Of a stretch of 64,000 nucleotides of DNA, positions 12,921 through 51,143 are shown in pieces. Under the pieces are notes generated by a model. The model saw nothing but the letters and a program-made list of their open reading frames with translations, was not told where the DNA came from and did no database searches. This stretch comes from an uncultured Gammaproteobacteria bacterium (GTDB taxonomy: Bacteria; Patescibacteriota; Microgenomatia; Levybacterales; GWA1-39-11), in contig CAZXFJ010000002.1 of NCBI GenBank assembly GCA_964640435.1, positions 4,175 to 68,174 on the forward strand. The letters are read 5' to 3'. Position 1 is the stretch's first letter; each line of letters opens with the position of its first letter. A program made the position numbers and the translations under genes.

Positions 12921-15313
12921 AGCAAAAAGTAATTATTGTCTTGTTATCCTGCTTCATTGTTTTGGCATTCTTCTATCAATTATTTCAGGGTAAAGTACCG
13001 TTTCCAGGTGACCTACTTGTAAATCAGGAGCCTTATAGATCTGAATCCATCGACGGGTTTGTAGCTGGATCTATTCCTAATAAAGCTCAAGGACCGGATG
13101 TTATTCATGAGCTTCTTCCGTGGAAAAAATTTACTATTGATTCATGGAAAAACTTGCAAATCCCTTTTTGGGATCCTTATAACTTTTCGGGTAATCCATT
13201 AATGGCAAATTATCAAAGTGGCGTTTTTTATCCGGGAAATATAATATTCTTTATTTTAGATTTTTCTGATGCATGGAGTATTTATATCTTTTTAACTCCA
13301 TTCCTTTCAATCCTTTTTACATACCTTTTCTTGAAAAGATTAAAACTGTCGGATGCAGCATCTTTATTTGGTGGCCTTGCTTTTTCGTTCTCTCTTTATA
13401 TGACAGTTTGGATGGAATACGGGAACATAGGGCATACATTTTTATGGCTTCCTCTTATACTTTATTTTACCGATAGATTTGTTGAAAGAAATAATAGAGT
13501 AGCTTTTTTGGGAATTGTATTGTCTTCATTTGCGGCAGCATTAGCTGGATACATTCAAGGCCTTTTCTATATTTATGCAATCACATTTATTTATTTTCTT
13601 TTAAAAAGTAATTCCCTAAAAAAGCCAAACTCACGTAAAATATTCATTTTCATTTCTTCTTTGGCATTACCAATATTTTTAACTGCGTTTCAAATGTTGC
13701 CAACGCTTGAGCTATTTGGTGAGTCAACAAGGGGAAATTATTCCCTGGATCAAATCCAGAAGATGCTTAATCCGCTTTACTATTTGATAACTATAGTTGC
13801 ACCTGATTTTTTTGGAAATCCTGCAAGCAGAAATTTCTGGTTTGATGGTACATATATTGAGAGAGTTTCCTATTTTGGTCTAATACCTTTTGCTTTTGCA
13901 ATACTTGCAATCGTTTCAGTATTTAAACGAGTAGAGGTTAAGGTTTTTTCAATTCTATTTATTTTTTCATTACTTATTTCAACTGATCTTTTCATAACTC
14001 GTTTTTTCTATTTAATACCTATTCCTGTTTTATCAACAACAGTTGCTACAAGAATACTTTCTGTATTTGCTTTTTCAGGTGCGATTCTTGCAGCATTTGG
14101 ATTTGAGCAAGTTTTACAGAGTAAGGATAAGAAGAAAATGTTTATGATTTTTGGATTATTACTTGCAGTAATAATTGTAGCCTTTGTGTTTACTCTTGCT
14201 TACCCAAAGACTTTAAGTGATTTGACAGTAATTTCTCAGCTTGCAACATCAAAGCGTAATTTAATTATTCCTTTAGCGACACTCATTATTTTTGGCGGGT
14301 TAACATTTGTTTTTTATAATTTGAATCTTTTTAAAAAGTATAAAAAGATGATTTACGTATTTGTTATTTTTGCAATAACTTTCGCAGAATTGTTTTATTA
14401 TTTTCAAAAAATTACACCGTTTGCTCCTAAAAATTATATGTACCCAGAAACACCCATTATGTCTTTCCTACAAAAAGATGCGGGTATAAATCGGTTTTGG
14501 GGATATGGTACTGCATATATCGAAAGCAATTTTCAAACTTTTGATAAAACATACTCACCTGAAGGAAATGACCCGCTCCATATAAAAACATATACCGAGC
14601 TTTTATCAGTTAGCAAAGATGGAAAAGTCCCCGCATTACTTCCGAGGCCGGATGCAAATATTGCAAGTGGATATGGTCAGGAAGATCTTTCAAATAACTC
14701 TTATAGACAAAAGATATTAAATATCGTTGGTATTAAGTACGTCCTTAATAGGAGCGAGATTCTAACAGGAGATTATTCTCCCGATACGGTAACTTTCCCA
14801 GAAGAAAAATATAAGCTGGCTTGGCAAAAAGGTCTATGGCAGGCATATGAGAACAAGAATATAACTCAACGAATTTTTATTACAAATAAATATAAAGTTG
14901 TGAATGAAGATAAAGCACTTCAGACTTTATTGAATAAGGACTTTAATGAAAAAGAGACTCTGGTGCTGTATGAAGATCCAAAGATCAAGCAGAGTGATTT
15001 AAAACAAAGTCTAAAAGTTGATTCATATACACCAAATAAAATTACTATTTCAGCAAAAACTTCCTCCGATGCGCTTCTTTATGTGTCAGACAATTATTAT
15101 CCCGGGTGGATTGCAAGTATTGATGGTCAAGACAACAAGATATATTTGGCAAATTATACTTTCCGTGCTGTTGTTGTACCAGCAGGTGACCATAAGGTAG
15201 TTTTTGAATTTAAGCCACAAAGCTTTTATTATGGAATATATATCGCACTTGCCGGTCTAGCGGGACTGGTAATAATGCTTATTATTATTGGTAAAAAAAA
15301 GAATGAAAAGTAA
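12917..15313 (+). CDS. YfhO-family membrane glycosyltransferase (GT-C), paralog 1
   Basis: 798 aa. WDPYNFSGNPLMANYQSGVFYP, the conserved APDFFGNP block and a C-terminal YYPGW motif. Shared with the ORFs at 24050 and 28539. Confidence 0.8.
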   Translation: MKQKVIIVLLSCFIVLAFFYQLFQGKVPFPGDLLVNQEPYRSESIDGFVAGSIPNKAQGPDVIHELLPWKKFTIDSWKNLQIPFWDPYNFSGNPLMANYQSGVFYPGNIIFFILDFSDAWSIYIFLTPFLSILFTYLFLKRLKLSDAASLFGGLAFSFSLYMTVWMEYGNIGHTFLWLPLILYFTDRFVERNNRVAFLGIVLSSFAAALAGYIQGLFYIYAITFIYFLLKSNSLKKPNSRKIFIFISSLALPIFLTAFQMLPTLELFGESTRGNYSLDQIQKMLNPLYYLITIVAPDFFGNPASRNFWFDGTYIERVSYFGLIPFAFAILAIVSVFKRVEVKVFSILFIFSLLISTDLFITRFFYLIPIPVLSTTVATRILSVFAFSGAILAAFGFEQVLQSKDKKKMFMIFGLLLAVIIVAFVFTLAYPKTLSDLTVISQLATSKRNLIIPLATLIIFGGLTFVFYNLNLFKKYKKMIYVFVIFAITFAELFYYFQKITPFAPKNYMYPETPIMSFLQKDAGINRFWGYGTAYIESNFQTFDKTYSPEGNDPLHIKTYTELLSVSKDGKVPALLPRPDANIASGYGQEDLSNNSYRQKILNIVGIKYVLNRSEILTGDYSPDTVTFPEEKYKLAWQKGLWQAYENKNITQRIFITNKYKVVNEDKALQTLLNKDFNEKETLVLYEDPKIKQSDLKQSLKVDSYTPNKITISAKTSSDALLYVSDNYYPGWIASIDGQDNKIYLANYTFRAVVVPAGDHKVVFEFKPQSFYYGIYIALAGLAGLVIMLIIIGKKKNEK

Positions 15314-16859
15314 ATATGTCTTGCTTATTATTTTGATACTTCTTGTTATTCCATCTTTTTGGTTTTTGATAAAACCAGGTTTTATTACAACCGACGATGG
15401 TAATTGGATGATTATCAGATTTTCGGCTTTCTATCAGGCCTTACGTGATGGTCAATTTCCTGTAAGAGTTTTGGATCGTTTAAATTTCGGCTATGGTTAT
15501 CCTGTTACAAACTTCTTATACCCAGGCTTCATGTATTTGGCAGTTCCATTTAAAGCTTTTGGCCTAAGCTTTGTCATGACGATTAAGCTAGTAATAGCTC
15601 TTTGCATGATCGGTTCTGGTGTTTTTATGTATCTTTGGTTGGGCCGACTATACAACAGCGTTTCAGCGTTCTTTGCATCCCTTTTTTACGTTTATGCACC
15701 ATATCATCTTTACGACTTAAGTAGGAGAGGGTCTGTCGGTGAGCTACTTTCATTAGCTGTTTTTCCTTTCACGATGTGGCAAATTGAAAGACAAAGCTTG
15801 TTCTTTTCAGCGATTGGTTTCGCTTTACTTATTATTTCACATAATACACTTGCGATAATGTTTTTGGCATTAATTATTTCGTACGCAGCTGTATCAATCT
15901 ATGCTTCTGAAAATCGTAAATTACTTATGGAGTTTTATTCAAGGTTAATAATTTTTGGACTTGGGATTTCTGCCTTTTTCTGGCTACCAGCCTTATTTGA
16001 ATTACAAAATACAGCTTTTTCTAAAACAAAAATTTCTGACTTCTCCAAATATTTTGCAGACTACAATCTTATTGGATTAACAACTATTTTGATTTTTGTT
16101 GGAACAATTATTGTTTTTATTATAAAGACAAGTTTAATAAAAAAAGAATACAAAACGATTTTAATGCTGACTTTGGGAATTGTTACAGCATTTTTAGCAA
16201 GTAATTTAAGTGAGGTGCTATGGCATGTTCTTCCGGTATCATTTATTCAATTTCCGTTTAGGATGCTTTCAGTAACAATTATTGCAGCATCTTTTGTACT
16301 TGCTTTCTGTCTCTCTCAAGTCGAGATGAGGATAAGAATAGCAGTTGGTATCGTTTTTATTGCTGTGACAATTGTTTTATCTTACAAACTTTTAATTCCA
16401 ACTTCTTTTAATTTAGAACAAGATGGTTTTTATTCCACAAATGAGGCAACGACAACAGTTCTTGATGAATATATGCCAGTTTGGGTTAAGGATAAGCCTT
16501 TGGGACATTTCGAAGAGAAAGTAAAAGTTATTCAAGGAGAAGGTGGAATACAAAATGTTTCCGCTAATTCAAAAAATATTTCATTTAATTTTGTATCAAA
16601 TTCTCCAGCAGTTGTGAGCGTATCAACTATTTATTATCCTGGATGGAAGGCATATGCAAATGGAAAAGAAAAGGCAATATTTTTTGATAACAGGAATGGG
16701 TTGATTGAGTTAAAACTTGAGGGAAGGAATCAAAAGGTAGAATTAAATTTTGGAGAAACTACAATGAGATTACTTGCAGATATTGTTTCTATTCTCTCTC
16801 TTATTTTGCTCTTCACTATAACTTTATACAAACCTGTTTTAAAATATATAAATAAATGA
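15303..16859 (+). CDS. short YfhO-related GT-C-like membrane protein (H-D-G motif family), member 1
   Basis: ATG at 15303 is preferred over the TTG at 15288. N-terminal TDDGNWMIIRF...FPVRVLDRLNFGYGYP motif and C-terminal YYPGWKAY. Confidence 0.6.
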   Translation: MKSKYVLLIILILLVIPSFWFLIKPGFITTDDGNWMIIRFSAFYQALRDGQFPVRVLDRLNFGYGYPVTNFLYPGFMYLAVPFKAFGLSFVMTIKLVIALCMIGSGVFMYLWLGRLYNSVSAFFASLFYVYAPYHLYDLSRRGSVGELLSLAVFPFTMWQIERQSLFFSAIGFALLIISHNTLAIMFLALIISYAAVSIYASENRKLLMEFYSRLIIFGLGISAFFWLPALFELQNTAFSKTKISDFSKYFADYNLIGLTTILIFVGTIIVFIIKTSLIKKEYKTILMLTLGIVTAFLASNLSEVLWHVLPVSFIQFPFRMLSVTIIAASFVLAFCLSQVEMRIRIAVGIVFIAVTIVLSYKLLIPTSFNLEQDGFYSTNEATTTVLDEYMPVWVKDKPLGHFEEKVKVIQGEGGIQNVSANSKNISFNFVSNSPAVVSVSTIYYPGWKAYANGKEKAIFFDNRNGLIELKLEGRNQKVELNFGETTMRLLADIVSILSLILLFTITLYKPVLKYINK

Positions 16860-18388
16860 AAAAAATTCTAACAAATAACTGGGCACTTATTGGCTTTTTT
16901 TTAATCTCAATTTTTTCTGTTTTACCATTTTTTCAAAGTGGCTTTTTTCAGATTCATGATGATGTTCAGGTCGCACGAGTCTATGAGATGGGAAAAAGTC
17001 TTTCTTTAGGAATGTTTCCTGTGAGATGGGTTATAGATCTTGGATATGGGTTTGGATACCCTATTTTTAATTTCTATTCGGTCCTACCATATTATTTAGG
17101 TGGTACATTAACGCTTTTTGGTTTTGATGCGCTTCTAGCTACTAAAATAATTTTTGTGATAGCCATCATTGGATCTGGTATATCCATGTACTATTTGGTT
17201 AATTCTTTTTTTGGTAAAGCTGCAGCACTTACATCTGCGCTTGTTTATCTTTATTTTCCTTACCACGCTGTAAACATTTATGTAAGAGGAGATTTGGCAG
17301 AGCTCTGGGCATATATGTTTTTGCCCTTGGTATTTTTAAGCTTTTTCAAAATTTACCAAGAAAAAAACTTATCAAAAAAATATATTGTTATTGGTGCATT
17401 ATCTATGGCAGCAGTTATTATTTGTCATAATCTATCTGCATTCATGCTTTTTATTTTCCTTGGTATTTTTTCGTTGTTTAGTTTACTAACTGGGACAAAC
17501 AAAAAAAATATATTTACTTCATGTGTACTTGTTTTTGGGTTAGCCTTTATGTTGTCTGCATTTTACGCAGTTCCAGCAACAATTGAGGCAAGTTTAACGA
17601 ATGTTTTAACTCAGGTTGGCGGTGGAGCAGATTTTGCTAAAAACTTTGTATGCATCAGACAGTTATGGGATGGTCCATGGGGATTTGGTGGGTCAGTTGC
17701 AGGATGTGTTGATGGCCTTAGTTTTAAACTTGGAAAATCAAATATTATTTTTGCCGTGATCGCCATTTTACTAGCAATTTTTTACTTCTCAAAATTAAAA
17801 GAGAACAGAGTAATAATTGTGTTTTCAATAGTCTTTTTAATTCTTTCTGTTTTTATGACTTTGCCAATATCAAATTTTATCTGGGAATTACCATTTATGG
17901 ACTTTTTGCAGTACCCTTGGAGATTCTTGAACTTTACGGGGGTATTTATAAGTATTGTAATAGGATCAGGGGTGTGGATTGTTTCTCAGCAATTTGAAAA
18001 GAAAGCTGAATATGTTGCTGTAATAGTAATAATACTTTCCACCTTATTTATAAACGGTAAGCTATTCGTGCCTCAAAGATACCTTGATCGAAGTTCTGAC
18101 TACTATACAAATAAAATGTATCTTAATTGGACAGCTTCAAAGATTTCTGATGAGTATCTTCCTAAAGGTTTTGTAAGACCTACATCTTACGAGCAAATCT
18201 CAAAATACAAACTGAACTATAATAATAGTCTGTATAAGGCTGAGCCTCTTCCAAAACCTCATTTTATGATGAATCAAACATTGGTTCAAAAGGTTTCAAA
18301 TGCGATTTCTCTTATTGGTGTTTTAGGTTTGATTACTGTTATAATAAGTAAATTCGGGAAGAAAGAAAAAAGTTCTAAAAATGGCTAA
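16856..18388 (+). CDS. short YfhO-related GT-C-like membrane protein (H-D-G motif family), member 2
   Basis: IHDDVQVARVYEM...FPVRWVIDLGYGFGYP. 510 aa, polytopic. ATGA overlap with the upstream gene. Confidence 0.6.
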   Translation: MKKILTNNWALIGFFLISIFSVLPFFQSGFFQIHDDVQVARVYEMGKSLSLGMFPVRWVIDLGYGFGYPIFNFYSVLPYYLGGTLTLFGFDALLATKIIFVIAIIGSGISMYYLVNSFFGKAAALTSALVYLYFPYHAVNIYVRGDLAELWAYMFLPLVFLSFFKIYQEKNLSKKYIVIGALSMAAVIICHNLSAFMLFIFLGIFSLFSLLTGTNKKNIFTSCVLVFGLAFMLSAFYAVPATIEASLTNVLTQVGGGADFAKNFVCIRQLWDGPWGFGGSVAGCVDGLSFKLGKSNIIFAVIAILLAIFYFSKLKENRVIIVFSIVFLILSVFMTLPISNFIWELPFMDFLQYPWRFLNFTGVFISIVIGSGVWIVSQQFEKKAEYVAVIVIILSTLFINGKLFVPQRYLDRSSDYYTNKMYLNWTASKISDEYLPKGFVRPTSYEQISKYKLNYNNSLYKAEPLPKPHFMMNQTLVQKVSNAISLIGVLGLITVIISKFGKKEKSSKNG

Positions 18389-19100
18389 AAAATTATCGGA
18401 ATTATCCATATTTTTCCCCTTCTGGAATGAAGAAAACAATATCCAAAAAGTAGTTTTGGATGCTATTCCTGTTGCAGAAAAATCAGCTGATAAGTGGGAG
18501 ATAATAATGGTTGATGATGGATCCAGTGACAGAACAGGTGAAATAGCTGAGGATTTAGTTAAGACAAACAAAAACCTAAAAGCGGTAAGACTCCACCCAA
18601 ACAGGGGGTATGGTGCTGCATTAAGATCGGGGTTTGAACACGCAAAATACAAATATGTTGTGTTTACTGATGGCGATCTCCAGTTTGATTTCTCAGAGCT
18701 AGATAGATTTATAGAAAAGATTGATGAAGCAGATATAGTTATAGGTTACAGAAAGACAAGGCGTGACGAGAAGATCTTTAAAAGATTGCTTCTCATGAAT
18801 CTCTTAAAAATTTGGGATTTCATTCTTTTTGGTTTCCATTTTAAGGATATAGATTGCGGATTTAAAATGTTCAAGCGTGAAGCTGTGAAGGAGTTAATGC
18901 CTCTTAGATCAGAAGGCGCTATGATAACAACTGAGATTTTGGCAAAAGCAAAAAAGAAAAAGCTAAAGATAGTTCAGGTTGGAGTTGAGCATTATCCACG
19001 CCAGCATGGAGTTCAAACAGGAGCAAACCTCTTTGTAATCATCAGGGCAGTTCTCGAAAGCCTTATACTCTGGTCTGATATTCACAATGGTCGAGTATAG
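18381..19100 (+). CDS. GT2 polyprenyl-phosphate sugar synthase (DPM1/GtrB-like)
   Basis: MVDDGSSDRT, NRGYGAALRSG, FTDGDLQFD and DIDCGFKMF. 239 aa. Confidence 0.85.
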   Translation: MAKKLSELSIFFPFWNEENNIQKVVLDAIPVAEKSADKWEIIMVDDGSSDRTGEIAEDLVKTNKNLKAVRLHPNRGYGAALRSGFEHAKYKYVVFTDGDLQFDFSELDRFIEKIDEADIVIGYRKTRRDEKIFKRLLLMNLLKIWDFILFGFHFKDIDCGFKMFKREAVKELMPLRSEGAMITTEILAKAKKKKLKIVQVGVEHYPRQHGVQTGANLFVIIRAVLESLILWSDIHNGRV

Positions 19101-19103
19101 TTT

Positions 19104-20561
19104 ATGGATGAGTTTAATTTTGAAGTTGTCGCTGTAAAGTCAATAAAAGGTGTTTTTGCTCTTTTTACTAGAACTTTCTTTATTCAAGTACTCTCGGTTG
19201 TAGCAAGTTTCATTTTAACCGTTTATCTATCTCCTGCAAACTACGGAGTTTTCTTCATAGTTTCATCAATAATTGTTTTCCTAACTTATTTTCAAGATAT
19301 AGGTCTTGCAGCGGCGCTTATTCAGAAAAAAGAAGAAGTTACAGTTGAAGAATTGAGAACAACGTTTACCCTTCAGCAGCTTTTAGTTGGTGGTTTGATA
19401 ATAATCGCACTTATTCTATCAAAACCAATAACCTCAATTTATCATTTGGACACACCGGGGTATATGCTGTTTTTAGCTCTGCTTTTTTCGTTTTTTATAA
19501 CTTCGCTTCGAACAATTCCCACGATCATGATGGAGAGGAAGCTGGACTACAAACGATTAGTAATACCTGAGATCGCTGAAAGTCTTACATACAACATTAT
19601 ATTAATTGTAATGGCTGTAGGTGGTTTTGGTTTGGCAACATTTACTTTTGCAGTTCTTGCTCGATGTGTTGTTGGGCTTATTGCAACTTATGTTGTTCAG
19701 CCTTGGCCGATTGGTATATCTTTTCATTTCAACTCAATCAAGAGACTATTTTCTTTTGGTGTGCCATATCAGGCAAATACATTTCTTGCGTTGTTTAAAG
19801 ACAATTTAATAACAATTTATATAGGAGGAATACTTCCAGCAGCTCAGGTTGGGTATATAGGTTTTGCTGAAAAATGGGCATATATGCCTTTACGACTTGT
19901 AATGGATAACGTTATTAGGATTGCGTTTCCTTCAATGAGTCGACTTCAACACGATAAGCCATCGCTTAGAACTGCTATTGAAAAATCTTTGTTTTTAGTA
20001 TCATTTTTCATTTTTCCTATTGTTGTTTGCATAATTCACTTCGCACCATTCTTGGTTGAATTTATTCCTCGTTACGGCAAATGGCAGCCAGCACTTCTAG
20101 CACTATCCTTTTATGCATTAAATACCGTTTTTTCATCTATCTCAACGCCTCTTACAAATTTCCTTACGGCAATAGGAAAAGTGAAGATAACTTTTTACTT
20201 TATGATTCTTTGGACGGTTGGAATTTGGGTATTAACTCCGCTTTTCATTATGAAATTTGGATTTAACGGAGTCGCTGCTGCATCGTTTATTGTTTCTACA
20301 TCTTCGATTCTGGTTTTTGTTGTTGCAAGGCGATACATAGAGTTTTCATTCACCAAACCAGTTTTAAGACAATTTTTAGCTGCAATTGTTATGTTTATCT
20401 TTATATATCTGACACGTGGCATGATAACTAATTTTCCGACCTTAATTGTTAATGCGTTGCTTGCGGCAGTTGTTTACGTAGGATTTTTAATCCTTATAGC
20501 ACGAGAGGAGCTTATAAAAACATTTTCATTTATAATTATAAGTATAAGAAAGAAGGCCTAA
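19104..20561 (+). CDS. Wzx-like oligosaccharide/polysaccharide flippase (MOP superfamily)
   Basis: 485 aa with ~12-14 TM. Typical polysaccharide-biosynthesis-protein N-terminus (LSPANYGVF...IQDIGLAAALIQ). Confidence 0.7.
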   Translation: MDEFNFEVVAVKSIKGVFALFTRTFFIQVLSVVASFILTVYLSPANYGVFFIVSSIIVFLTYFQDIGLAAALIQKKEEVTVEELRTTFTLQQLLVGGLIIIALILSKPITSIYHLDTPGYMLFLALLFSFFITSLRTIPTIMMERKLDYKRLVIPEIAESLTYNIILIVMAVGGFGLATFTFAVLARCVVGLIATYVVQPWPIGISFHFNSIKRLFSFGVPYQANTFLALFKDNLITIYIGGILPAAQVGYIGFAEKWAYMPLRLVMDNVIRIAFPSMSRLQHDKPSLRTAIEKSLFLVSFFIFPIVVCIIHFAPFLVEFIPRYGKWQPALLALSFYALNTVFSSISTPLTNFLTAIGKVKITFYFMILWTVGIWVLTPLFIMKFGFNGVAAASFIVSTSSILVFVVARRYIEFSFTKPVLRQFLAAIVMFIFIYLTRGMITNFPTLIVNALLAAVVYVGFLILIAREELIKTFSFIIISIRKKA

Positions 20562-21485
20562 ATGAATAAGTTATCTGTTGTTATTTCAGCATACAATGAA
20601 GAGAAAAATATTAAAGACTGCTTGGAATCTATTAAAGAATTAGCAGATGAAATTATAGTAGTTAATAATTCGTCAACTGATAAAACCGAGGAGATATCTA
20701 AAAAATACACTAAGAAAATTTTTAACCAAGAAAATAACCCATTAAAAATTGACCTCCAGAAGAATTTTGGTTTTTCTAAAGCAACTGGCGATTGGATATT
20801 AAGTCTTGATGCTGATGAAAGAGTAACATCTGAGCTTGCAGGTGAAATTAAAACTGTGATTGAGAATGACGCTAATGAAGGATATTGGATCCCTCGAAAA
20901 AATATGATTTTTGGGAAATGGATAAAAAGCGATATGTGGTGGCCAGATTATCAGCTTAAGTTATTCAAAAATGGAAAGGGTAAATTTGAAAAAAGTACCA
21001 TACATAAGGCTCTTCAAGTAGCTGGTCAAACAGAAAAATTGGAGAATTATCTTATCCACAACAATTATACTTCCGTTTCCCAATTTGTAATAAGACTTAA
21101 TAGTTACACAGATCTAGAAGCCGAGAATCGTGTATCGGATGGGTATCGCTTTAGTGCATTTGATGCCATACGCTTTCCTGTAGATGATTTTGTTAAAACA
21201 TACTTTTTACAGAAAGGTTACCAAGATGGATTACATGGACTTGTTCTTAGTATACTGCAGGCATTTTATATGGAGGTTGTATTTGCAAAATTATGGGAGA
21301 AAAAAGACTTTGAAGATGTATCTGATCCTGGTTTTACTAATGGTGTTCAGAAAGAATTTATTAATTCAGGAAATAAAGTGAAATACTGGGTTAAGACAAT
21401 CCTCATTGATAGTTCAAAAAATCCAGTGCGAAAAATTTTGCTTAAGACTTCACGAAAAATTACATCCTCTAAAATAAAAGAATAG
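20562..21485 (+). CDS. GT2 glycosyltransferase (WaaE-like subgroup)
   Basis: LSVVISAYNEEKNI...ADEIIVVNNSSTDKT and DADE acidic motif. Paralogs at 26387 and 44308. Confidence 0.8.
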   Translation: MNKLSVVISAYNEEKNIKDCLESIKELADEIIVVNNSSTDKTEEISKKYTKKIFNQENNPLKIDLQKNFGFSKATGDWILSLDADERVTSELAGEIKTVIENDANEGYWIPRKNMIFGKWIKSDMWWPDYQLKLFKNGKGKFEKSTIHKALQVAGQTEKLENYLIHNNYTSVSQFVIRLNSYTDLEAENRVSDGYRFSAFDAIRFPVDDFVKTYFLQKGYQDGLHGLVLSILQAFYMEVVFAKLWEKKDFEDVSDPGFTNGVQKEFINSGNKVKYWVKTILIDSSKNPVRKILLKTSRKITSSKIKE

Positions 21486-21486
21486 T

Positions 21487-22398
21487 ATGAAAAAAGTTTT
21501 TATAGTGGTTTTAAATTACAATGGATATAAGTCTACTATTGAATGTCTTGAATCATTAAATAGACTAAATAATAAAGGCATCGAGATAGAAACATTGGTA
21601 GTTGATAATGATTCACAGGATGGATCGGTAGAAAAAATAAGAGATAAGTTTCCAAAGCTTACAATAATTGAAAACCAAGAGAATCAGGGCTTTTCCGGAG
21701 GATGTAATGAAGGCATTCGTTATGCCCTTAAAGGAGATGCAAGTCACATAATGGTACTCAATAATGATACTAGGGTTGATGCTGATTTAATTATTAATCT
21801 TGTTGAGGCTTCAGAAGAAGAAGGGGTTGCAGGAGTAGTGCCCAAAATATATTTTGAAAAAGGATTTGAATTCCATAAGGATAAATATGATAAATCTGAT
21901 TTAGGTAAAGTTATTTGGTACGCAGGTGGAAAAATGGATTGGCAAAATTTGATTGGGAAAAATATTGGCGTTGATGAGGTTGATAATGGACAATTTGAGG
22001 AGAAGAGAAGGACTGAACTTGCAACTGGCTGTTGTTTTTTAATCAAAGCAGAAGTACTAAAAAAAATTGGATTGTTTGATCATAGATATTTTCTTTATTA
22101 TGAAGATGCTGATTTATCAGAAAGAATAAGAAAAGCAGGTTACTCAATAATATTTGAACCAAAAGCAGTTCTTTGGCATAAGAATGCTGAGTCAAGTGGA
22201 GGATCAGGATCTGGCTTGCAAGATTATTATATAAGTAGGAATCGTTTATTATTTGGAATGACATATGCTCCACTGAAGACAAGGCTAGCGCTCTTTCGAG
22301 AAAGCCTGGCATTGCTCAAAGGGGGAAGAGCATGGCAGAAAATTGGCGTTCGTGATTACTATATTAAGAAGTTTGGTAAGGGAAGCTATAAAAAATAA
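21487..22398 (+). CDS. GT2 glycosyltransferase (rhamnosyltransferase/WbbL-like)
   Basis: VVLNYNGYKST...VVDNDSQDGS, ENQGFSGGCN and YYEDADLSERI. Confidence 0.8.
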   Translation: MKKVFIVVLNYNGYKSTIECLESLNRLNNKGIEIETLVVDNDSQDGSVEKIRDKFPKLTIIENQENQGFSGGCNEGIRYALKGDASHIMVLNNDTRVDADLIINLVEASEEEGVAGVVPKIYFEKGFEFHKDKYDKSDLGKVIWYAGGKMDWQNLIGKNIGVDEVDNGQFEEKRRTELATGCCFLIKAEVLKKIGLFDHRYFLYYEDADLSERIRKAGYSIIFEPKAVLWHKNAESSGGSGSGLQDYYISRNRLLFGMTYAPLKTRLALFRESLALLKGGRAWQKIGVRDYYIKKFGKGSYKK

Positions 22399-22400
22399 AA

Positions 22401-38097: not shown

Positions 38098-38104
38098 AAT
38101 AATA

Positions 38105-38110: not shown

Positions 38111-38118
38111 CTTAAGAA

Positions 38119-39771: not shown

Positions 39772-39773
39772 AC

Positions 39774-41429: not shown

Positions 41430-41437
41430 GTTGAAAA

Positions 41438-42958
41438 ATGAAGAAAAAGAAGTTTAAGTTTTCGAATTTATTCACGCCAACACTTATAATACTTTACGTA
41501 TTAATTATCATAGGGTCCTATTTAAGACTCGAAGGTATTTTCGACAATTCTTTTGCCTTTACTTACGATGTGGGACGCGATCTAATAGCCGTTGGCGATA
41601 TAGTTACAGGACAAAAACTTTCTTTAATTGGTCCAACTTCAGGTTTACCAGGAGTATTTTATGGACCCTGGTGGTATTTAATGCTTGCTCCATTTTTTGT
41701 TTTATCTTCTGGAAATCCACAAGGAATTGCATTTTTTATGAGTTTACTGGGAATTTTATTAATCCCCTTATCATTTTATTTTGGTAAAAGACTTAATGGT
41801 GATTTTTTAGCTCTAAGCCTTGCAGGACTTGCAGCAGTTTCACCATCATTAATTTCCTTATCTTCTCAAATTTGGAGTCCTAATATCGCACCTGTCTTCG
41901 TTTTACTTTCATTTATTTTGCTCTACAAGATTTACTCCGGAAAAGATAATCCAATAATATATTTTTTACTAGGTTTTGTTACATTCTTAAATTCTGAAGC
42001 AGAAATAATATTTGGAGTTCTGTTTACTGGTGGAGTTGTTATATCAGTAATTTTAATTAAAAAATTAACATTAAAGCCAATTTCAGTTATCGCCTTTTTA
42101 CTAGGTACGGTTATTGTTATCTCACCAAAAATACTTTTTGAAGTTAAGCACAATTTCTTGATGACTCAATCATTTATAAAATATTTTCAGTCAGGTGCAG
42201 AGAAAGATATGGTGAGTGGAGGAGTTGTAGATATATTAATAAATCGATTAGACATATTTATAAATGAATTTTCATATGCTGTTGCATTTGGCAATAAGGT
42301 AGCTGGAATAATTTTACTAGTCGCCACAATTATCTCAATTATCTATTTCTATAAAAGAATATCTTCAAATGAAAAAAAATTGATAATTACCTCGACTATT
42401 ATTTTAATAGTATTTTTCGCAGGAACTCTATTTTTTGCGCACAATATTTGGCCTCATTATTTAGTTGGGCTTCCTATAATATATATATTGTTGGTTTCTA
42501 TTGCCTTAGCAAATTTGAAATTTAAACTTAAGTCTTATACGATTTCGTATATAGTTTTATTTCTTTTAATTGTTATTAATCTTAATCCTATTTCAGTTTA
42601 TCAATCATTTAGTACCAGCTGGGAAGGAAATGCGGCAGTTTATAGAAATCAGCTAAATGTAGTCGACAGTATTTATGCTCAAACTAAAAACAAAAGATTT
42701 AAATATGTTGTTTATACACCACCACTTCACGATTATACGTATAGATATCTTTTTGAATGGAGAGGAAAGAAGTATAACATGAAGCCATCTATCCAAGCAG
42801 ACACGGCATACTTTATTTTAGAGCCAGATCCAGAGGACCCATCAAGGCTTACTAGATGGCTACAAGAAAGAGCAGGAGATGGTAAAATTAAAAAAAGTAA
42901 GAAATACGATGGTGGAATCATTGTTCAAGAAAGATTTGTAGGAAATGAAAAAAACTAA
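41438..42958 (+). CDS. polytopic GT-C-like membrane protein (ArnT-like), pair member 1
   Basis: 506 aa. First-loop FTYDVGRDLIAVGDIVTGQKL...GPWWY mirrors the next ORF (FGYDQVDNAWAAKNIVADGRYPL...GPLYYY). Confidence 0.5.
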   Translation: MKKKKFKFSNLFTPTLIILYVLIIIGSYLRLEGIFDNSFAFTYDVGRDLIAVGDIVTGQKLSLIGPTSGLPGVFYGPWWYLMLAPFFVLSSGNPQGIAFFMSLLGILLIPLSFYFGKRLNGDFLALSLAGLAAVSPSLISLSSQIWSPNIAPVFVLLSFILLYKIYSGKDNPIIYFLLGFVTFLNSEAEIIFGVLFTGGVVISVILIKKLTLKPISVIAFLLGTVIVISPKILFEVKHNFLMTQSFIKYFQSGAEKDMVSGGVVDILINRLDIFINEFSYAVAFGNKVAGIILLVATIISIIYFYKRISSNEKKLIITSTIILIVFFAGTLFFAHNIWPHYLVGLPIIYILLVSIALANLKFKLKSYTISYIVLFLLIVINLNPISVYQSFSTSWEGNAAVYRNQLNVVDSIYAQTKNKRFKYVVYTPPLHDYTYRYLFEWRGKKYNMKPSIQADTAYFILEPDPEDPSRLTRWLQERAGDGKIKKSKKYDGGIIVQERFVGNEKN

Positions 42959-44273: not shown

Positions 44274-44293
44274 TCGTAAAATCAAGCAATTTG

Positions 44294-44302
44294 TGTTAGT
44301 AT
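44294..44302 (+). promoter_or_regulatory. extended -10-like (TGtTAGTAT) 5 nt upstream of the ATG at 44308
   Basis: TGTTAGTAT at 44294-44302. The spacer is slightly short. Confidence 0.3.
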
Positions 44303-44307
44303 AAATT

Positions 44308-46064: not shown

Positions 46065-46080
46065 ATCTGAATTTATCCAA

Positions 46081-46599
46081 ATGAGAATTTATTTTGTTAG
46101 TCTTATATTAATTCTCTTTTTTGTTTTTCCTTCAAAAGCCCTCGCGGAATCACCTTACGTATTACCATATCCCCAAACAATGCCTGGTAGCACATGGTAT
46201 AAGCTAGACTTGATAAAAGAAGAATTGATGAGATATTGGTATTTCGGTGATTTTGGGCAATTTGAATTCGCCCTAAAGGAGTCAGATAAATATTTGGTAG
46301 AGGCTAAAACCCTTTTTGAATACAAGCAATATCTACTAGGTTCTAGCGCACTGCAAAAGTCAGATAGTTATTTTAAAAAGGCTTGGCCAGCTCTTATAAG
46401 AGCTGAGAAAAATGGAAAAAATATTGAAGAGAATAAAATAATTTTAAAAAATGCCTCTGAAAAGCATATAGAGATACTAAACGAGTTAAAGAATAAAGTA
46501 CCAAAAGAATTTAATTGGACACCTGAAAAATCTAGTCCTAGTAATCTTAAATTGGGAGACTCAATTATTAGATCCATAAATATAAGGGCGCATTTATGA
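46081..46599 (+). CDS. secreted hypothetical protein (signal peptide)
   Basis: 172 aa. N-terminal hydrophobic segment ending ...SKALA-ES. Hydrophilic, helical remainder. Confidence 0.45.
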   Translation: MRIYFVSLILILFFVFPSKALAESPYVLPYPQTMPGSTWYKLDLIKEELMRYWYFGDFGQFEFALKESDKYLVEAKTLFEYKQYLLGSSALQKSDSYFKKAWPALIRAEKNGKNIEENKIILKNASEKHIEILNELKNKVPKEFNWTPEKSSPSNLKLGDSIIRSINIRAHL

Positions 46600-47708
46600 A
46601 AAAGATTCTATTAATATACTCCTCATTTTTTATACTATTTTCCTTTATTTCATTTTTTTACATAGATCAGAACTTTATATATCTCAATTTTTTATATACT
46701 GGTTTCTCTTTAAATTTCAGAATTTTATCTGCGATTCTTTATTTTCTTTTTATAACTGTATTCTTCGTAATTTACTATTTCTTATTAACCCAAAAAGATA
46801 TCGATATAAAAAAATTAAGATGGTATCTTTTAGTTCCATGTGTCGGGTTGTTTGCATACCCTGCGATACTATCGTTTGACATCTTTAATTACGTGACAAC
46901 TTCTAAAGTTGCTTTTCACTATCTTGAAAATCCATATATTATTATGCCAATAGATTTTCAGGGGGATCCAGTCTTGATGTTTACTCGTGCCGCAAATAAA
47001 ACAGCACTTTACGGTCCTTTATGGGTGGGATTAACTTCGGTGCCATTTTATTTATCCTTGGGTAATTATCTTTTTTCAATAGTTCTTTTTAAGTTGTTGG
47101 TCGCTTTTTTCTATTTTGGAATTTTATATATTATTTGGAAAAGTACCAAGACTCCATTCAATGTTGTATTTTTTGCGGCAAGTCCATTAGTACTTATTGA
47201 AACGTTTATTTCTGGTCACAATGATGTGGTAATGATGTTCTTGGCAGTTGCTTCAATTTTTGCATTAAGACGAAAAAGAATTTTTATTGCAATTTCTCTT
47301 TTAATTATGTCGGTATTAATAAAATACGCCACAATATTTTTAGTTCCACTTTTCATTTACTACTTCTATTTGAGGTTTAAAAATAAACAAATTGACTGGG
47401 ATAGTGTTTATTTTACTGGCTTTATATTGATGACAATAATATTTTTTCTTTCAGCTTTCAGAGAAGAGATATATCCGTGGTATGCTATATGGCCCTTAGC
47501 ATTTATCTCTTTTATCGCAGATAAAAAGAAATATTTGAGATTATTTGTCATTTTTTTCTCATATTGTCTTATGTTGAGATATCTTCCATTTATGGCTACT
47601 GGAAATTATTTTGGAATAACTCCTGCGATTAAGATTGTAATAACATTTATATTCCCAGGTATTTTTATATTTATTCTTTTTCTTAGAAAGAATTTTAAGG
47701 TAAAATGA
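46596..47708 (+). CDS. polytopic GT-C-like membrane glycosyltransferase (GT87/DUF2029-like), paralog of the ORF at 10199
   Basis: SFDIFNY, GDPVLMF...LYGPLW and SGHNDVVMMF in the same order as in the ORF at 10199. 370 aa. Confidence 0.5.
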   Translation: MKKILLIYSSFFILFSFISFFYIDQNFIYLNFLYTGFSLNFRILSAILYFLFITVFFVIYYFLLTQKDIDIKKLRWYLLVPCVGLFAYPAILSFDIFNYVTTSKVAFHYLENPYIIMPIDFQGDPVLMFTRAANKTALYGPLWVGLTSVPFYLSLGNYLFSIVLFKLLVAFFYFGILYIIWKSTKTPFNVVFFAASPLVLIETFISGHNDVVMMFLAVASIFALRRKRIFIAISLLIMSVLIKYATIFLVPLFIYYFYLRFKNKQIDWDSVYFTGFILMTIIFFLSAFREEIYPWYAIWPLAFISFIADKKKYLRLFVIFFSYCLMLRYLPFMATGNYFGITPAIKIVITFIFPGIFIFILFLRKNFKVK

Positions 47709-49513
47709 TTGGATTCCTTTATTTAGTATCTGTCCTCTTCGTAGGTGCAATAGCTCACGAATTATTTATTGACAAAAAATTCATAATAAATAAGTTTGCA
47801 AGCTCATTTTTGCTTGGATCATTGATTAGCGTGACAATATGCTTTGTTTTGCTATTAATCTTACGAAATCTTAGTTCAGCCTTGTTGGTATATTTTGTAT
47901 TAGTCATACTTTCCTCACCATTTATCTACAAACGAATTAGAGTCTCATTTACCAAGAATACAATCTTCACTGTTGCTATTTTGGCGTTTTCTTTTTTATT
48001 GTTTCAAAAAGCATTTAATTACAATACAGTGGAAAATGTTTTTTTAATTCAAACTAACTTGTATCAAGATATGGGCGCACATATTCCTTTCATAAGATAC
48101 TTCTCAGACGGTGGAATCTTTCCAGAAGCACCTTTTTTTGCAGGTAAAAACTTGTTTTATCATTTTATGTTTGATTTCTATGCTTCAATACTTGAATATT
48201 TAGGATTAAGAATAAATATAGCATTTAATCTCATAAGTGCGCTTACTTTAACATCTCTATTTTTGACTATTAATTCATTATCAAAATTTCTTTTTAAAAA
48301 TAAATATGTAGGAATTTTAGCGTGCATAATGCTACTGTTTAATAGTGACTTGTCCTTTATTGATTTATTTCGTTCATATGGTATTTCTCCTGGTGGGCTG
48401 CTATCAATTTACCATCACAATGCATACCCAATAGGCAACATTTTTAATCTGCAAGTAAGTCAAAACTTCTTAAATATTAATGTGTATTTAAATCAAAGAC
48501 AGTTGATATTCGGTTTGCTTTGGTTTTTTTATCTAATTTATTTGTTCTTATATTCAAATGGGAAAATTAGTTTGAGTTTAGGATTGTTAATTATTTTTTC
48601 AATTTGTGCTTTTCCATTTTGGAATTTACCTATCTTGATTTCGTTTTATATTGTGTTGGTAGGTATTATTACCTTGTTTAAAGAATATAGAAAGAGTGGA
48701 GCTGCTTTAGTAATTTTGTCATTACCTTTTGTTGGCATTCAGGTTTTATTAATTAAGCTTAATTCATTAAACAATATTATATTTCATCCAGGGTTTGTAC
48801 TTGCTGAAAAATTAAGTTTAATAAACTTTTCGCTTTTCTGGATTTGGAATCTTGGAATAATTATTCCACTTCTTATATATGCTTTTATAAAATCAAATAT
48901 TTATCAAAGAAAAATCTTTTTAGTTTTTGTAAGTATTTTTATAATAGCTAATTTATTTCAATTCTCTCGAGATCCATTTGATAATCATAAGTTCTTTAAT
49001 GTTTGGATAGTTTTAGCCAATATTTATGCAGGATATTCACTTTTGCAAATTTTTAAAATAGGCAAATGGGGAAGAGTGGCAGCAGTAATATTATTTTTCC
49101 TAGCAACACTCTCAGGCATGTTGCATTTTTTAGTAGTTAAAAATGATCTTTATGCGAAAATTTCTGACTCATCCAAATTTAATATTTATGGATGGATAGA
49201 GAATAATACAAAAAAAGAAGATATATTTTTAACTAACGGTGAAATATATGATCCTGTAGGCATAATGGGCCGAAGAATATTCTTAGGAAGACCTCAGTAT
49301 GTATATTTATATGGAAATGACCCATCTGGACGTCTAAGAATCAAAGAAAGCGTACTTAAAGGTGAAATTAAAAGTGAAAAGAAGCAATTAAGCTATATTA
49401 TAATTTATAAAGATAATAAGCTGCCAAATATTTATAAAGCTGATACTAAGAAACTTGGCAGTTTATATAAAAAAGTTTATGAAGACAATTTCGGCATTAT
49501 TTACAAACTATAA
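47705..49513 (+). CDS. large polytopic membrane protein, unassigned family (candidate GT-C-like)
   Basis: 602 aa with ~14 TM and a C-terminal ~110-aa hydrophilic domain. No assignable motif. Confidence 0.45.
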   Translation: MIGFLYLVSVLFVGAIAHELFIDKKFIINKFASSFLLGSLISVTICFVLLLILRNLSSALLVYFVLVILSSPFIYKRIRVSFTKNTIFTVAILAFSFLLFQKAFNYNTVENVFLIQTNLYQDMGAHIPFIRYFSDGGIFPEAPFFAGKNLFYHFMFDFYASILEYLGLRINIAFNLISALTLTSLFLTINSLSKFLFKNKYVGILACIMLLFNSDLSFIDLFRSYGISPGGLLSIYHHNAYPIGNIFNLQVSQNFLNINVYLNQRQLIFGLLWFFYLIYLFLYSNGKISLSLGLLIIFSICAFPFWNLPILISFYIVLVGIITLFKEYRKSGAALVILSLPFVGIQVLLIKLNSLNNIIFHPGFVLAEKLSLINFSLFWIWNLGIIIPLLIYAFIKSNIYQRKIFLVFVSIFIIANLFQFSRDPFDNHKFFNVWIVLANIYAGYSLLQIFKIGKWGRVAAVILFFLATLSGMLHFLVVKNDLYAKISDSSKFNIYGWIENNTKKEDIFLTNGEIYDPVGIMGRRIFLGRPQYVYLYGNDPSGRLRIKESVLKGEIKSEKKQLSYIIIYKDNKLPNIYKADTKKLGSLYKKVYEDNFGIIYKL

Positions 49514-51143
49514 GTATTTAATTGTAGTTATATTATTTTCTGTTTTAGGATCTTTGGATCTTTTGCATTACGGCATCCCGCCTACTCATGATGGCGAATA
49601 CCACATAATGCGTTTTTGGCAATTTTATGAAACATTAAGCTCAGGTGTATTATACCCACGTTGGGCGCCAGATTTTAACAATGGGTTTGGGATACCAATA
49701 TTTAGTTATGTATATCCTCTTCCAAATTATGCTGCTTCATTATTTCATTTTATGGGCTTCAGTTATATAGAGTCTCTTAAGTTAAACATGGCAGTAGCAT
49801 CCATAGTTGGAGCATTTTTTTTCTATTTATGGAGTAGGCGTTACTGGGGTGAGCTTGGGGGAGTTGTTTCATCTGTATTCTATACCTTTGCGCCATATCA
49901 CTTTTTGGATATTTATGTCCGTGGGTCTGTAGGAGAAGTTTGGAGTCTGGCAATTGCACCCGGTTTATTATGGGCGTATTTAGCTTTTACACAAAACAAT
50001 AAAAAGTTATATTTTAGTTTGTCATGCTTGCTGCTTGGTTTACTTGTCTTCGCACATAATATTTTAGCTTTAGTTTTCTTTTCATTTTTTATTCTCTATT
50101 CGGTATTCATTATTTTAGAATCTAAAGATAAAAAGTATTTAATTGTTAACACTTTACTTATTTGTATTCTTGGTCTTGGTTTATCGGCGCCTTTCTGGTT
50201 GCCTGCAATTATTGAAACAAAATATGTTCAAGGCCTTCAGATATTCAATCCTACGGCATACTTTCCAAAATTATATCAACTCATTTATTCCTCATGGGGA
50301 TATGGTTTTGCTGGTGTTGATCCTAAACCTGGTGAGGGACAAATGTCATTTCAAATTGGTATACCAAATTTAATTGTAACTTCAATTGTATTTTTATTTT
50401 TAGTATTTAGTAAAAAATTAAAGTACAAAAAGATTATTATTTTCTCAGTTGCATTACTTTTGTTTTTTGTATTTTTAATAACGCCTTTTTCTGAAATTTT
50501 TTGGAAAATTGTTCCAGGAGTTTCATTTATTCAGTTTCCCTGGAGACTACTCAGTGTAGTAATTTTAATCTGCGCATTTTTAGCAGGAAGCATTATAGAA
50601 GATTCTTTATTTAAGGGAAAAAAGAAACTTCAGCTTGTTGTTTCGCTAATCATGATTCTAATCGTTGTGATATATGGAATTAGATACGCCAGAGAACCTT
50701 TTTATCATAAACGACCGGATAACCATTACTTATCGCGGTCTAATTTTACAGATGGAACAAATAGTCCCGGTGATGTTTTTAATACTAAATGGTTAAAATC
50801 TATTCCCCCTAAAGCGCGACAAAAAATTGAAATAATAAAAGGACAGGGTAAAATAGAGAACGTTTACCAGTATCCGCAGCAAGTTAAATTTAGTGCGATC
50901 ATTGAGAAAAAATCAAAAATTCTAGTCAATATTGCATATTTTCCGGGATGGACAGCTACTTCGAACAACAAAAATATTCGAGTAGAAAATTATAACGGAA
51001 AGATAAGTTTGAGGCTCAATAACGGTAAACAAAATATAAACTTATATTTAGCTAACACTCTGATTCAGAATTGGTCTTATGTCTATTTTTTGATAGCTAT
51101 TTTGGCTATAATTTATTATAAACCTTATGAAGATCGCAGTTGA
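49479..51143 (+). CDS. short YfhO-related GT-C-like membrane protein (H-D-G motif family), member 4
   Basis: ATG at 49479 is preferred over the TTG at 49455. PPTHDGEYHIMRFWQFY...PRWAPDFNNGFGIP and C-terminal YFPGW. Confidence 0.6.
   Translation: MKTISALFTNYKYLIVVILFSVLGSLDLLHYGIPPTHDGEYHIMRFWQFYETLSSGVLYPRWAPDFNNGFGIPIFSYVYPLPNYAASLFHFMGFSYIESLKLNMAVASIVGAFFFYLWSRRYWGELGGVVSSVFYTFAPYHFLDIYVRGSVGEVWSLAIAPGLLWAYLAFTQNNKKLYFSLSCLLLGLLVFAHNILALVFFSFFILYSVFIILESKDKKYLIVNTLLICILGLGLSAPFWLPAIIETKYVQGLQIFNPTAYFPKLYQLIYSSWGYGFAGVDPKPGEGQMSFQIGIPNLIVTSIVFLFLVFSKKLKYKKIIIFSVALLLFFVFLITPFSEIFWKIVPGVSFIQFPWRLLSVVILICAFLAGSIIEDSLFKGKKKLQLVVSLIMILIVVIYGIRYAREPFYHKRPDNHYLSRSNFTDGTNSPGDVFNTKWLKSIPPKARQKIEIIKGQGKIENVYQYPQQVKFSAIIEKKSKILVNIAYFPGWTATSNNKNIRVENYNGKISLRLNNGKQNINLYLANTLIQNWSYVYFLIAILAIIYYKPYEDRS

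Follow-up and report, generated by a model that had tools for sequence, protein, structure and literature searches.

Four PF10131 paralogs in a Levybacterales glycan gene cluster as likely GT-C glycosyltransferases of the cell surface

Given four similar membrane proteins encoded in the window (the whole 64,000-nucleotide stretch analysed here), we asked whether they represent a new lineage of glycosyltransferases, as a reading of the sequence alone had proposed, and which function they might serve. The four genes, termed paralogs A to D, are as follows:

15303-16859, + strand: paralog A, 518 aa, ATG start, PF10131/GT-C (Pfam 33.3 bits)
16856-18388, + strand: paralog B, 510 aa, ATG start, PF10131/GT-C (Pfam 59.8 bits)
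22401-24053, + strand: paralog C, 550 aa, ATG start, PF10131/GT-C (Pfam 42.9 bits)
49479-51143, + strand: paralog D, 554 aa, ATG start, PF10131/GT-C (Pfam 40.1 bits)

For A and D, upstream TTG codons (15288 and 49455, respectively) give longer starts in the automatic ORF listing; the ATG starts were preferred because the N-termini of the paralogs read MK followed by a hydrophobic helix. Pairwise identities among the four are 26–33% (BLASTP, E 7e-32 to 2e-72), a similarity far beyond chance, and by sequence comparison they are true paralogs. Related loci were found in Levybacteria/Levyibacteriota, Gottesmanbacteria and other Patescibacteria (best locus 62% identical), where orthologs share 43–51% identity versus the 26–33% between paralogs. 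A-type orthologs (median identity 43%) are preceded by a YfhO gene in Levybacteria loci; the order A-B-...-C recurs in 14 loci, and in at least 27 a D-type ortholog lies 3–6 kb downstream of a C-type gene. Judged by these comparisons, A to D represent ancient orthogroups whose synteny is maintained in Levybacteria. A recent tandem duplication was rejected given the low identity between paralogs and the separate orthologs of each.

All four proteins score above the gathering threshold of the Pfam family PF10131 (PTPS_related; 33–60 bits versus 26.4). The alignments span about positions 1–317 of the 621 in the profile and start at protein residues 71–93, past the N-terminal motif described below, so A-D are divergent, shorter members of PF10131, and their C-terminal part is instead a YfhO-type beta-sandwich with an anchor helix. 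PF10131 had already been placed in the GT-C clan CL0111, with unknown function (PMC7801869). The proposal of a divergent GT-C lineage was supported in its core, by the structural models and the homology to YfhO, with the qualification that the family was already catalogued (the PTPS-related family had itself been named among the comparators) and that A-D are additional members of a known superfamily, not a new lineage. Equally, they are not ordinary members of a characterised family with variable motif positions, since PF10131 is catalogued yet uncharacterised, the motif is conserved, and the modelled fold is that of GT-C enzymes. No NCBIfam model matches the four proteins, and our literature search for functional studies of PF10131, PTPS_related or COG5617, or of GT-C enzymes in CPR, returned two passing mentions only. 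The family is nonetheless very large: a profile built from A-D matches 19,175 clusters (50% identity) at E<=0.001, of which 6,733 still match at E<=1e-30.

Because the PF10131 model begins after the first transmembrane helix (TM1) and the first loop, the N-terminal HD...R...PRW...GYGxP motif lies outside the Pfam definition. We expressed it as [HD]D-x5-7-R-x14-17-R[WV]-x3-8-G[YF]GxP, and it occurs at the following positions:

15393-15503, + strand: paralog A first-loop motif, DDGNW..R..PVRV..GYGYP (regex match), candidate catalytic Asp32 at 15396-15398
16955-17062, + strand: paralog B first-loop motif, HDDVQVAR..PVRW..GFGYP, Asp35 at 16958-16960
22497-22607, + strand: paralog C first-loop motif, HDGQDHVAR..VPRW..GYGHP, Asp34 at 22500-22502
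49587-49697, + strand: paralog D first-loop motif, Asp38 at 49590-49592

Of the window's 57 ORFs with 150 aa or more, the pattern matches A-D and no others, in agreement with the earlier observation of four plus-strand ORFs with a common N-terminal motif. Across the window and 80 related loci it matches 116 of 1,151 ORFs, all 116 of which are family members by HMM. The second half of the motif had been placed about 15 residues downstream; instead, L-N-x-G-Y-G-x-P begins 4 residues past R-W. The motif is distinctive in being confined to family ORFs, although its G-x-x-P-x-W...G-x-P part is common to the first loop of YfhO.

Conservation was assessed in 147 diverse homologs (at most about 50% mutual identity; numbering of paralog C). 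Near-invariant positions comprise D34 (98%), R57 (99%), G67 (99%) and P69 (99%) in the motif region, R144 (97%), E149 (97%), H191 (99%) and P241 (99%) further on, and S333 (100%), P349 (100%) and R351 (99%). Residue D34 is preceded by H in 86% of the 147 sequences and by D in 9%. The motif set of D34, R57, GxGxP, R144, E149, H191 and QxPWR is 93–100% conserved and lies entirely on the extracytoplasmic side, as do all 50 of the positions with at least 80% conservation, which fall in extracytoplasmic loops or the outer parts of TM helices (relative depth 0.43–1.0 toward the outside). D34, R57, G67 and P69 lie in the first extracytoplasmic loop, and the motif His/Asp may have the catalytic or metal-binding role that had been suggested. 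D34 itself is found 9 residues beyond TM1, at the outer face, in the first extracytoplasmic loop.

In GT-C enzymes, the catalytic acidic residue sits in the first extracytoplasmic loop, and D34 is a conserved acidic residue of that loop in keeping with the DxD, DD, DE or DxxD types. The invariant Asp of PMT_2 proteins aligns opposite D37, three residues from D34, and in a deep alignment D32 of YfhO aligns two residues away from it. From topology and these approximate alignments, D34 would be the approximate counterpart of the known catalytic Asp. In Listeria GtlB, the first-loop residues D35 and D38 are essential to function (PMC5836110; review PMC8035078).

Structural models point the same way. 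AF2 models of C (pLDDT 89.9) and B (pLDDT 89.4), with pTM 0.91, have 12 TM helices, within the 8–13 or more of GT-C enzymes, and both adopt a GT-C fold. About ten helices had been counted after the first; TM1 is indeed followed by ten, and a final anchor helix after the beta domain brings the number up to 12. According to the models, both termini of A-D are inside, and the cytoplasmic loops carry 8 K/R versus 1 D/E, a positive-inside bias. In a Foldseek search the best 27 matches were all GT-C glycosyltransferases, STT3 first (best E 9e-6). Sequence searches of the PDB with 4-sequence and 40-sequence profiles gave no relevant match, so the family is tied to solved structures by fold comparison only. 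The C-terminal elements map as follows:

23712-23951, + strand: paralog C extracytoplasmic beta-sandwich, residues 438-517 (AF2 strands), with YFPGW at 23823-23837
23961-24032, + strand: paralog C anchor helix TM12, following the beta-sandwich
50937-50951, + strand: paralog D YFPGW

The relationship to YfhO, part of the original proposal, was upheld over the full length of the proteins: an hhalign comparison of the 147 family sequences with 122 YfhO sequences gave 99.7% probability (E 2.7e-25, 507 columns). Aligned on its own, the C-terminal YFPGW beta domain also proved homologous to the end of YfhO (97.6%, E 3.9e-12). Shallow N-terminal sub-alignments (PF10131 residues 1–90 versus YfhO 1–125) yielded nothing (1% probability), and the kinship of the first loops is visible only with deep alignments. 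Likenesses include the G-x-x-P-x-W...G-x-P element of the first loop, the C-terminal YYPGW...G-x-H beta domain with its terminal TM helix, and location in the same operons. As predicted, the YYPGW/YFPGW domain is present in three of the four (A, C and D) and is missing from B, which retains the last TM helix. Also as predicted, A-D lack the APDFFGNP block (loop after TM7), which appears in hhalign as a YfhO-specific insert; PDFFGNP was found just in the three YfhO genes. A-D are furthermore about 250 residues shorter, without the 34-residue first-loop insert of YfhO and without the extra TM helices and large periplasmic region that YfhO has between TM11 and the beta domain, and they have a single conserved first-loop Asp, whereas YfhO has two (D32 and D61). 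None of the four matches PF09586 at E<=1 (gathering threshold 28.5 bits), in contrast to three neighbouring genes at 82–105 bits, and some orthologs of A-D have weak precomputed PF09586 matches. A-D are in effect the neighbouring YfhO enzymes in compact form, built on a common TM core, beta-sandwich and anchor helix. Profile homology extends to the PMT_2 genes of the window (96.5%, E 1e-9), but A-D have no PMT or PMT_2 Pfam match, differ in their conserved motif set from PMT/PMT_2 types (yeast Pmt1/2/4, ArnT, Listeria GtlB, GacL), and lack a MIR or ArnT-type periplasmic domain.

Gene context would link the paralogs to lipid-linked sugar transfer. The neighbouring genes are:

12917-15313, + strand: YfhO-family GT-C gene, 798 aa, PF09586 89.1 bits, PDFFGNP and YYPGW, immediately upstream of A
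18381-19100, + strand: short GT2, 239 aa, Glycos_transf_2 104 bits, overlaps the end of B, candidate polyprenyl-phosphate-sugar synthase
19104-20561, + strand: Wzx/MOP-type flippase, Polysacc_synt_3 157.7 bits, between B and C
20562-21485, + strand: GT2 gene, Glycos_transf_2 84.8 bits, upstream of C
21487-22398, + strand: GT2 gene, Glycos_transf_2 77 bits, directly upstream of C
24050-26374, + strand: YfhO-family GT-C gene, 774 aa, PF09586 82.1 bits, immediately downstream of C

The upstream YfhO gene and the start of A have 11 nt in common, A and B join in an ATGA overlap, and a further ATGA joins the stop of C to the start of the YfhO gene that follows. Each copy had been thought to lie beside a YfhO or a GT2 gene, and this applies to A (after YfhO), B (before GT2) and C (between GT2 and YfhO) but not to D, which has an unannotated membrane protein of 602 aa on one side and a GT4 (Glycos_transf_1) on the other. 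Among the 80 related loci, a GT2 gene directly follows 60 of 147 family genes. The short GT2s at 9460, 18381, 31740 and 53413 most resemble polyprenyl-phosphate-sugar synthases, with their best NCBIfam similarities to PgfS, AglJ, ArnC and PpgS, far below the cut-offs. A clear match was seen only beside a distant homolog carried by a Roseomonas plasmid: the GT2 that overlaps this homolog by 4 nt aligns full-length to the PgfS profile (274 bits, E 1e-81) and to ArnC (E 2e-47), and the two are a classic GT-A/GT-C pair. The surrounding glycan biosynthesis cluster exceeds 50 kb and holds, besides A-D, three YfhO, six PMT_2 and two GT87-like genes, with at least 13 GT-C genes having Pfam support. 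Relatives of the source organism have genomes under 1 Mb.

YfhO proteins (PF09586) of B. subtilis, S. aureus and L. monocytogenes (Lmo1079) add GlcNAc to LTA/WTA from C55-P-GlcNAc. In B. subtilis YfhO, the large extracellular loop has two DXD motifs, which a 2018 study reportedly found not to be conserved. Both YfhO and the C55-P-sugar synthase CsbB are genetically required for GlcNAc addition to LTA/WTA (PMC5836110; review PMC8035078). We consider it likely that A-D are PF10131 GT-C membrane glycosyltransferases, which would take sugars from polyprenyl-phosphate donors and pass them to an acceptor at the cell surface. A small GT2 of the cluster would make the polyprenyl-phosphate-sugar in the cytoplasm, the donor would then be flipped, and A-D, working on the outside of the cytoplasmic membrane, would transfer its sugar to a secondary cell-wall polymer or surface protein. 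The near-invariant first-loop Asp (D34 in paralog C) may act as the catalytic base, and the conserved basic and polar residues R57, K97, R144, H191 and R351 at the outer membrane boundary may bind the lipid phosphate. Since each paralog type forms a separate orthogroup with a fixed cluster position, the four are probably distinguished by the sugar, the linkage or the acceptor.

Two observations count against a monophosphate donor. Several of the top structural neighbours are oligosaccharyltransferases, enzymes that use diphosphate-linked donors, and the flippases encountered are only of the Wzx type: the window has two Wzx/MOP-type genes, and no GtrA-type flippase was found among the ORFs of at least 120 aa scanned against Pfam. 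Wzx flippases usually carry diphosphate-linked oligosaccharides. A-D might resemble en-bloc oligosaccharyltransferases or ligases that move a preassembled oligosaccharide from undecaprenyl-diphosphate to a protein or polymer, rather than adding single sugars from monophosphate donors, which we regard as unlikely. The WWD (WWDYG-type) motif of STT3/AglB/PglB (GT66) is missing in all four, as is the STT3 C-terminal domain, identity in structural alignments is about 12–15%, and the STT3 Pfam model matches C alone, below threshold (15.4 bits versus 24.5; no match for A, B and D). Less probable still is that A-D are inactive GT-C-fold scaffolds, serving the adjacent YfhO or PMT_2 enzymes as acceptor-binding partners or lipid-carrier handlers, for which the non-catalytic GT-C fold of PIG-U/GAB1 in the GPI transamidase provides a precedent.

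Orthologs are named '6-pyruvoyl-tetrahydropterin synthase-related protein' at NCBI, and this name, like that of the Pfam family, is all that favours a kinship with such synthases and a role in pterin or queuosine metabolism. That role was rejected on fold, domain content and gene context, and its chance is negligible: there is no soluble PTPS-like domain, the whole protein consisting of 12 TM helices and a beta-sandwich; the structural neighbours are all GT-C glycosyltransferases; and the genes lie within the glycan cluster. 'PTPS_related' is a misnomer with no tie to pterin synthesis.

Going beyond the likely role of A-D as surface glycosyltransferases, we speculate that the PF10131 paralogs and the YfhO, PMT_2 and GT87-like genes could form an extracytoplasmic assembly line that uses polyprenyl-phosphate donors to build up a complex envelope glycan one sugar at a time. 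Each orthogroup would make one specific linkage, and the A-YfhO and C-YfhO pairs, which are translationally coupled, would act as heteromeric enzymes like Pmt1-Pmt2. Mycobacterial arabinan/LAM synthesis and the ER-lumenal ALG steps offer parallels. If this tentative picture were true, PF10131 would deserve a CAZy family to itself, and the glycan could play a central part in the attachment of these epibiotic bacteria to hosts.

Current concepts of GT-C enzyme action are unchanged by these findings. For the family, they remove a misleading annotation, the 'pterin-synthase-related' proteins here being likely surface glycosyltransferases, and they give a very large uncharacterised family candidate active-site residues outside its Pfam model; comparison with PF10131 also singles out D32 and D61 of the YfhO first loop as candidate catalytic residues. 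Given the strikingly large, syntenic block of GT-C genes in their genomes, the envelope glycans of Levybacteria-type cells are probably elaborate and important for a host-dependent life.

The four membrane-protein genes picked out by the sequence-only reading (paralogs A to D) are all present as open reading frames (ORFs) with ATG starts and single terminal stops. They are listed here with the three YfhO (PF09586) genes of the window.

15303-16859, + strand: paralog A
16856-18388, + strand: paralog B
22401-24053, + strand: paralog C
49479-51143, + strand: paralog D
12917-15313: YfhO gene
24050-26374: YfhO gene
28539-30809: YfhO gene, without YYPGW

Pairwise identities among A-D were 26-33% by BLASTP (E 7e-32 to 2e-72), and A aligned with the other three over its whole length (24-31% identity). 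Of the 57 ORFs in the window with 150 aa or more, a regular expression for the N-terminal HD...R...P-R-W...GYGxP motif matched A-D alone; when 80 related loci were added to the window (1151 ORFs in total), every one of its 116 matches was a family member. YYPGW/YFPGW was described previously for three of the four; it occurs in A, C and D and is missing from B. The paralogs lack the APDFFGNP block, as described, PDFFGNP being confined to the three YfhO genes. Two details required correction: GYGxP starts four residues after R-W instead of about 15, and D lies between a GT4 gene and the gene of a membrane protein that has no annotation, not beside a YfhO or GT2 gene.

The G+C content of the window is low (31-37%). 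From approximately 7.9 kb (7935-64000), genes form a near-unbroken + strand run: practically all ORFs of 150 aa or longer lie on that strand, and start/stop overlaps of 4 nt or longer are frequent. The cumulative GC skew shows a monotonic rise over the window. This pattern fits one replichore carrying co-oriented, translationally coupled genes.

We assessed whether A-D belong to a catalogued family. All four passed the gathering threshold (26.4 bits) of Pfam PF10131, "PTPS_related" (A 33.3, B 59.8, C 42.9 and D 40.1 bits), and no NCBIfam model matched them. PF10131 is a member of GT-C clan CL0111, with its function listed as unknown (PMC7801869). Our literature search on PF10131 found, besides that clan listing, only one mention, as the name of a gene in a table of Clostridium transcriptome data, and no experimental work on the family. 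The proposal of a divergent GT-C lineage is upheld as to GT-C, but the lineage is not an unrecognised one. The Pfam model begins at residues 71-93 of A-D, so the N-terminal motif lies outside the Pfam definition, and only the first half of the model is matched, making A-D divergent, short members. The family itself is very large, since a four-paralog profile search of 1.84 billion representatives matched 19,175 clusters defined at 50% identity with E<=0.001, and 6,733 with E<=1e-30. Public orthologs are annotated either as "6-pyruvoyl-tetrahydropterin synthase-related protein" or as "hypothetical protein" and come from Patescibacteria, chiefly Levybacteria/Levyibacteriota and Gottesmanbacteria. 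A pterin-synthase role for A-D was excluded by fold and gene context.

Outside the window, some predicted proteins (P0121, P0122, P0123 and P0125) consist of PF10131 modules fused in tandem, from two to about five of them; examples are a pair of full modules within 1093-1116 aa and one 3329-aa protein containing several. The 12-TM, N-in/C-in topology would permit real fusions, but gene-calling artefacts are also possible.

Confident AlphaFold2 models were obtained for C, from a 40-sequence alignment, and for B, from 42 sequences (pLDDT 89.9 and 89.4, respectively; pTM 0.91). In C, TM1 leads into a first loop of 66 residues that contains two helices; ten more TM helices, a beta-sandwich (438-517) and a last TM helix follow. 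B has the same layout minus the beta-sandwich. Although no related solved structure was detectable by sequence alone, Foldseek agreed with the GT-C fold suggested earlier (STT3, E 9e-6, TM-score ~0.45). Cytoplasmic loops contain 8 K/R versus 1 D/E. All 50 positions conserved at >=80% fall in extracytoplasmic loops or the outer TM part (relative depth 0.43-1.0 outward on the model helices), as expected for a GT-C active site located at the outer surface of the membrane. The N-terminal motif positions proved to be conserved, with D34 at 98% and R57 and G67/P69 at 99%.

Conservation across 147 sequences (the four paralogs and 143 representatives with no more than ~50% mutual identity; numbering of paralog C)
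H33 86%, D34 98%
R41 96%
G52 93%
R57 99%, W58 80%
G65 84%, G67 99%, P69 99%
K97 97%
Y131, P135, Y136 94-97%
R144 97%, G145 92%, E149 97%
P157 99%
H191 99%, N192 93%
P241 99%, E245 93%
S333 100%, W337 95%
Q347, P349, W350, R351 93-100%
F476, P477, W479 86-97%

Shallow alignments related the family to the window YfhO genes (98.9%, E 1.4e-17, TM2-TM8 region) and PMT_2 genes (96.5%, E 1e-9, TM1-TM6). The claimed relationship to YfhO was substantiated by a deep hhalign comparison of 147 family and 122 YfhO sequences (99.7%, E 2.7e-25, 507 columns), spanning C residues 4-547 and YfhO 1-794. The beta domain (YFPGW...GKH) and anchor helix were separately homologous (97.6%, E 3.9e-12), bearing out the YfhO-like C-terminus. 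Compared with A-D, YfhO has a 34-residue first-loop insert, the APDFFGNP insert and, separating TM11 from the beta domain, a long insertion that contributes additional helices and a periplasmic region. The family G-x-x-P-x-W...G-x-P aligns with YfhO Q-I-P-F-W...S-G-N-P, so this part of the motif, previously considered distinctive, is shared.

The defining feature of GT-C enzymes is an extracellular loop bearing a DxD-like motif. In GtlB, D35 and D38 of the first loop are needed for function (PMC5836110). For B. subtilis YfhO, a 2018 study (PMC5836110) found no conservation of the two DXD motifs in its large extracellular loop. By contrast, D32 (97%) and D61 (100%) are conserved in the first extracytoplasmic loop across the YfhO family (n = 122), making these Asp residues candidates for the YfhO catalytic residue. 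D32 aligns two residues off D34, and D61 falls inside the first-loop insert with a D61-P83 spacing identical to that of D34-P56 (22 residues); judging from these alignments, either may be the counterpart of D34.

The window represents a glycan cluster of >50 kb in which four PF10131, three YfhO and six PMT_2 genes are accompanied by two GT87-like membrane proteins. The cluster also contains ten or more GT2 genes, GT4 genes, sugar-nucleotide enzymes and two flippases of the Wzx type. Four of the GT2s are short (237-259 aa) and were nearest to the polyprenyl-phosphate-sugar synthases PgfS, AglJ, ArnC and PpgS, at scores well under curated cut-offs. The same gene families recur in the 80 related loci, where every paralog type has its own orthologs (43-51% identity) and a GT2 gene lies directly downstream of 60 of the 147 family genes. 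The order YfhO-A-B-(GT2, Wzx, GT2, GT2)-C-YfhO...YfhO is conserved in 14 loci, and C is followed by D in at least 27. Approximately half of the 80 loci (L002, L004, L007, L008 and many more) are titled "uncultured Gammaproteobacteria bacterium" in GTDB records; these show Levybacteria-type synteny with proteins 50-60% identical, and the taxonomy in the titles appears to be a placeholder or incorrect.

Beyond the family, fold, topology and conservation demonstrated here, cluster context and GT2 coupling lead us to infer that A-D would move sugars from polyprenyl-phosphate donors onto an extracytoplasmic acceptor, with D34 as putative catalytic residue and conserved Arg, Lys and His residues as likely phosphate ligands. 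En-bloc oligosaccharide transfer is a possible alternative, suggested by the Wzx genes of the cluster and by structural neighbours that resemble OST, but it is disfavoured, as A-D lack the WWD motif and YfhO is their closer kin. A non-catalytic role is disfavoured, as the conservation resembles an active site.

Distant family homologs, annotated "hypothetical protein", occur on alphaproteobacterial plasmids of Roseomonas haemaphysalidis (L081 4796-7620, NZ_CP061179) and Sphingobium (L082, AP027335). The Roseomonas homolog (24% identity) had no Pfam PF10131 match at E<=0.01; it retains D34, R57, GxGxP, Y..PY, R144, E149, H191, P241 and QxPxR, and is without R41, K97, N192 and E245. It overlaps by 4 nt with a GT2 whose full length aligns to the profiles of PgfS and ArnC, and the Sphingobium homolog adjoins a divergently transcribed "glycosyl transferase" and a methyltransferase.

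Elsewhere in the cluster, 53413-58273 looks like an Arn-like module.

53413-54192: GT2, ArnC/PpgS-like similarity
54189-55289: GT4
55282-56133: polysaccharide deacetylase family protein (cf. ArnD)
56130-56945: formyltransferase-domain protein (cf. ArnA N-domain)
56945-58273: PMT_2 GT-C (cf. ArnT)

By analogy, this arrangement points to a pathway for a lipid-linked amino sugar that is formylated or deformylated. Two paralogous membrane proteins (10199-11344 and 46596-47708; 370-381 aa, 33% identity, E 5e-45) matched no Pfam family above threshold. Both have weak GT87 matches (the first also a weak AftD-GT-C match) and a common DIFNY...H(Y)..NPY...GDP...YGP motif, and they are probably additional, GT87-like GT-C glycosyltransferases. 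Four large polytopic or membrane-associated ORFs (47705-49513, 602 aa; 41438-42958, 506 aa; 32489-34423, 644 aa; 36091-38097, 668 aa) had no significant Pfam match, with only weak DUF3863 similarity in the last. The 506-aa ORF is located within the PMT_2 array and did not match the PMT_2 HMM; PMT_2-adjacent ORFs in related loci matched weakly (~26-60 bits).

B has lost the C-terminal beta-sandwich by internal deletion and retains the terminal TM helix. Its orthologs are mostly 555-581 aa long, with a YFPGW-like motif in only 4 of 16, so decay or divergence of the beta domain seems to be under way in this orthogroup.

Overall, A-D are new members of a catalogued family in a well-known superfamily. 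What they add is modest: a residue-level signature beyond the Pfam model, the placement of PF10131 as a compact YfhO relative, and conserved multi-paralog synteny in Levybacteria.
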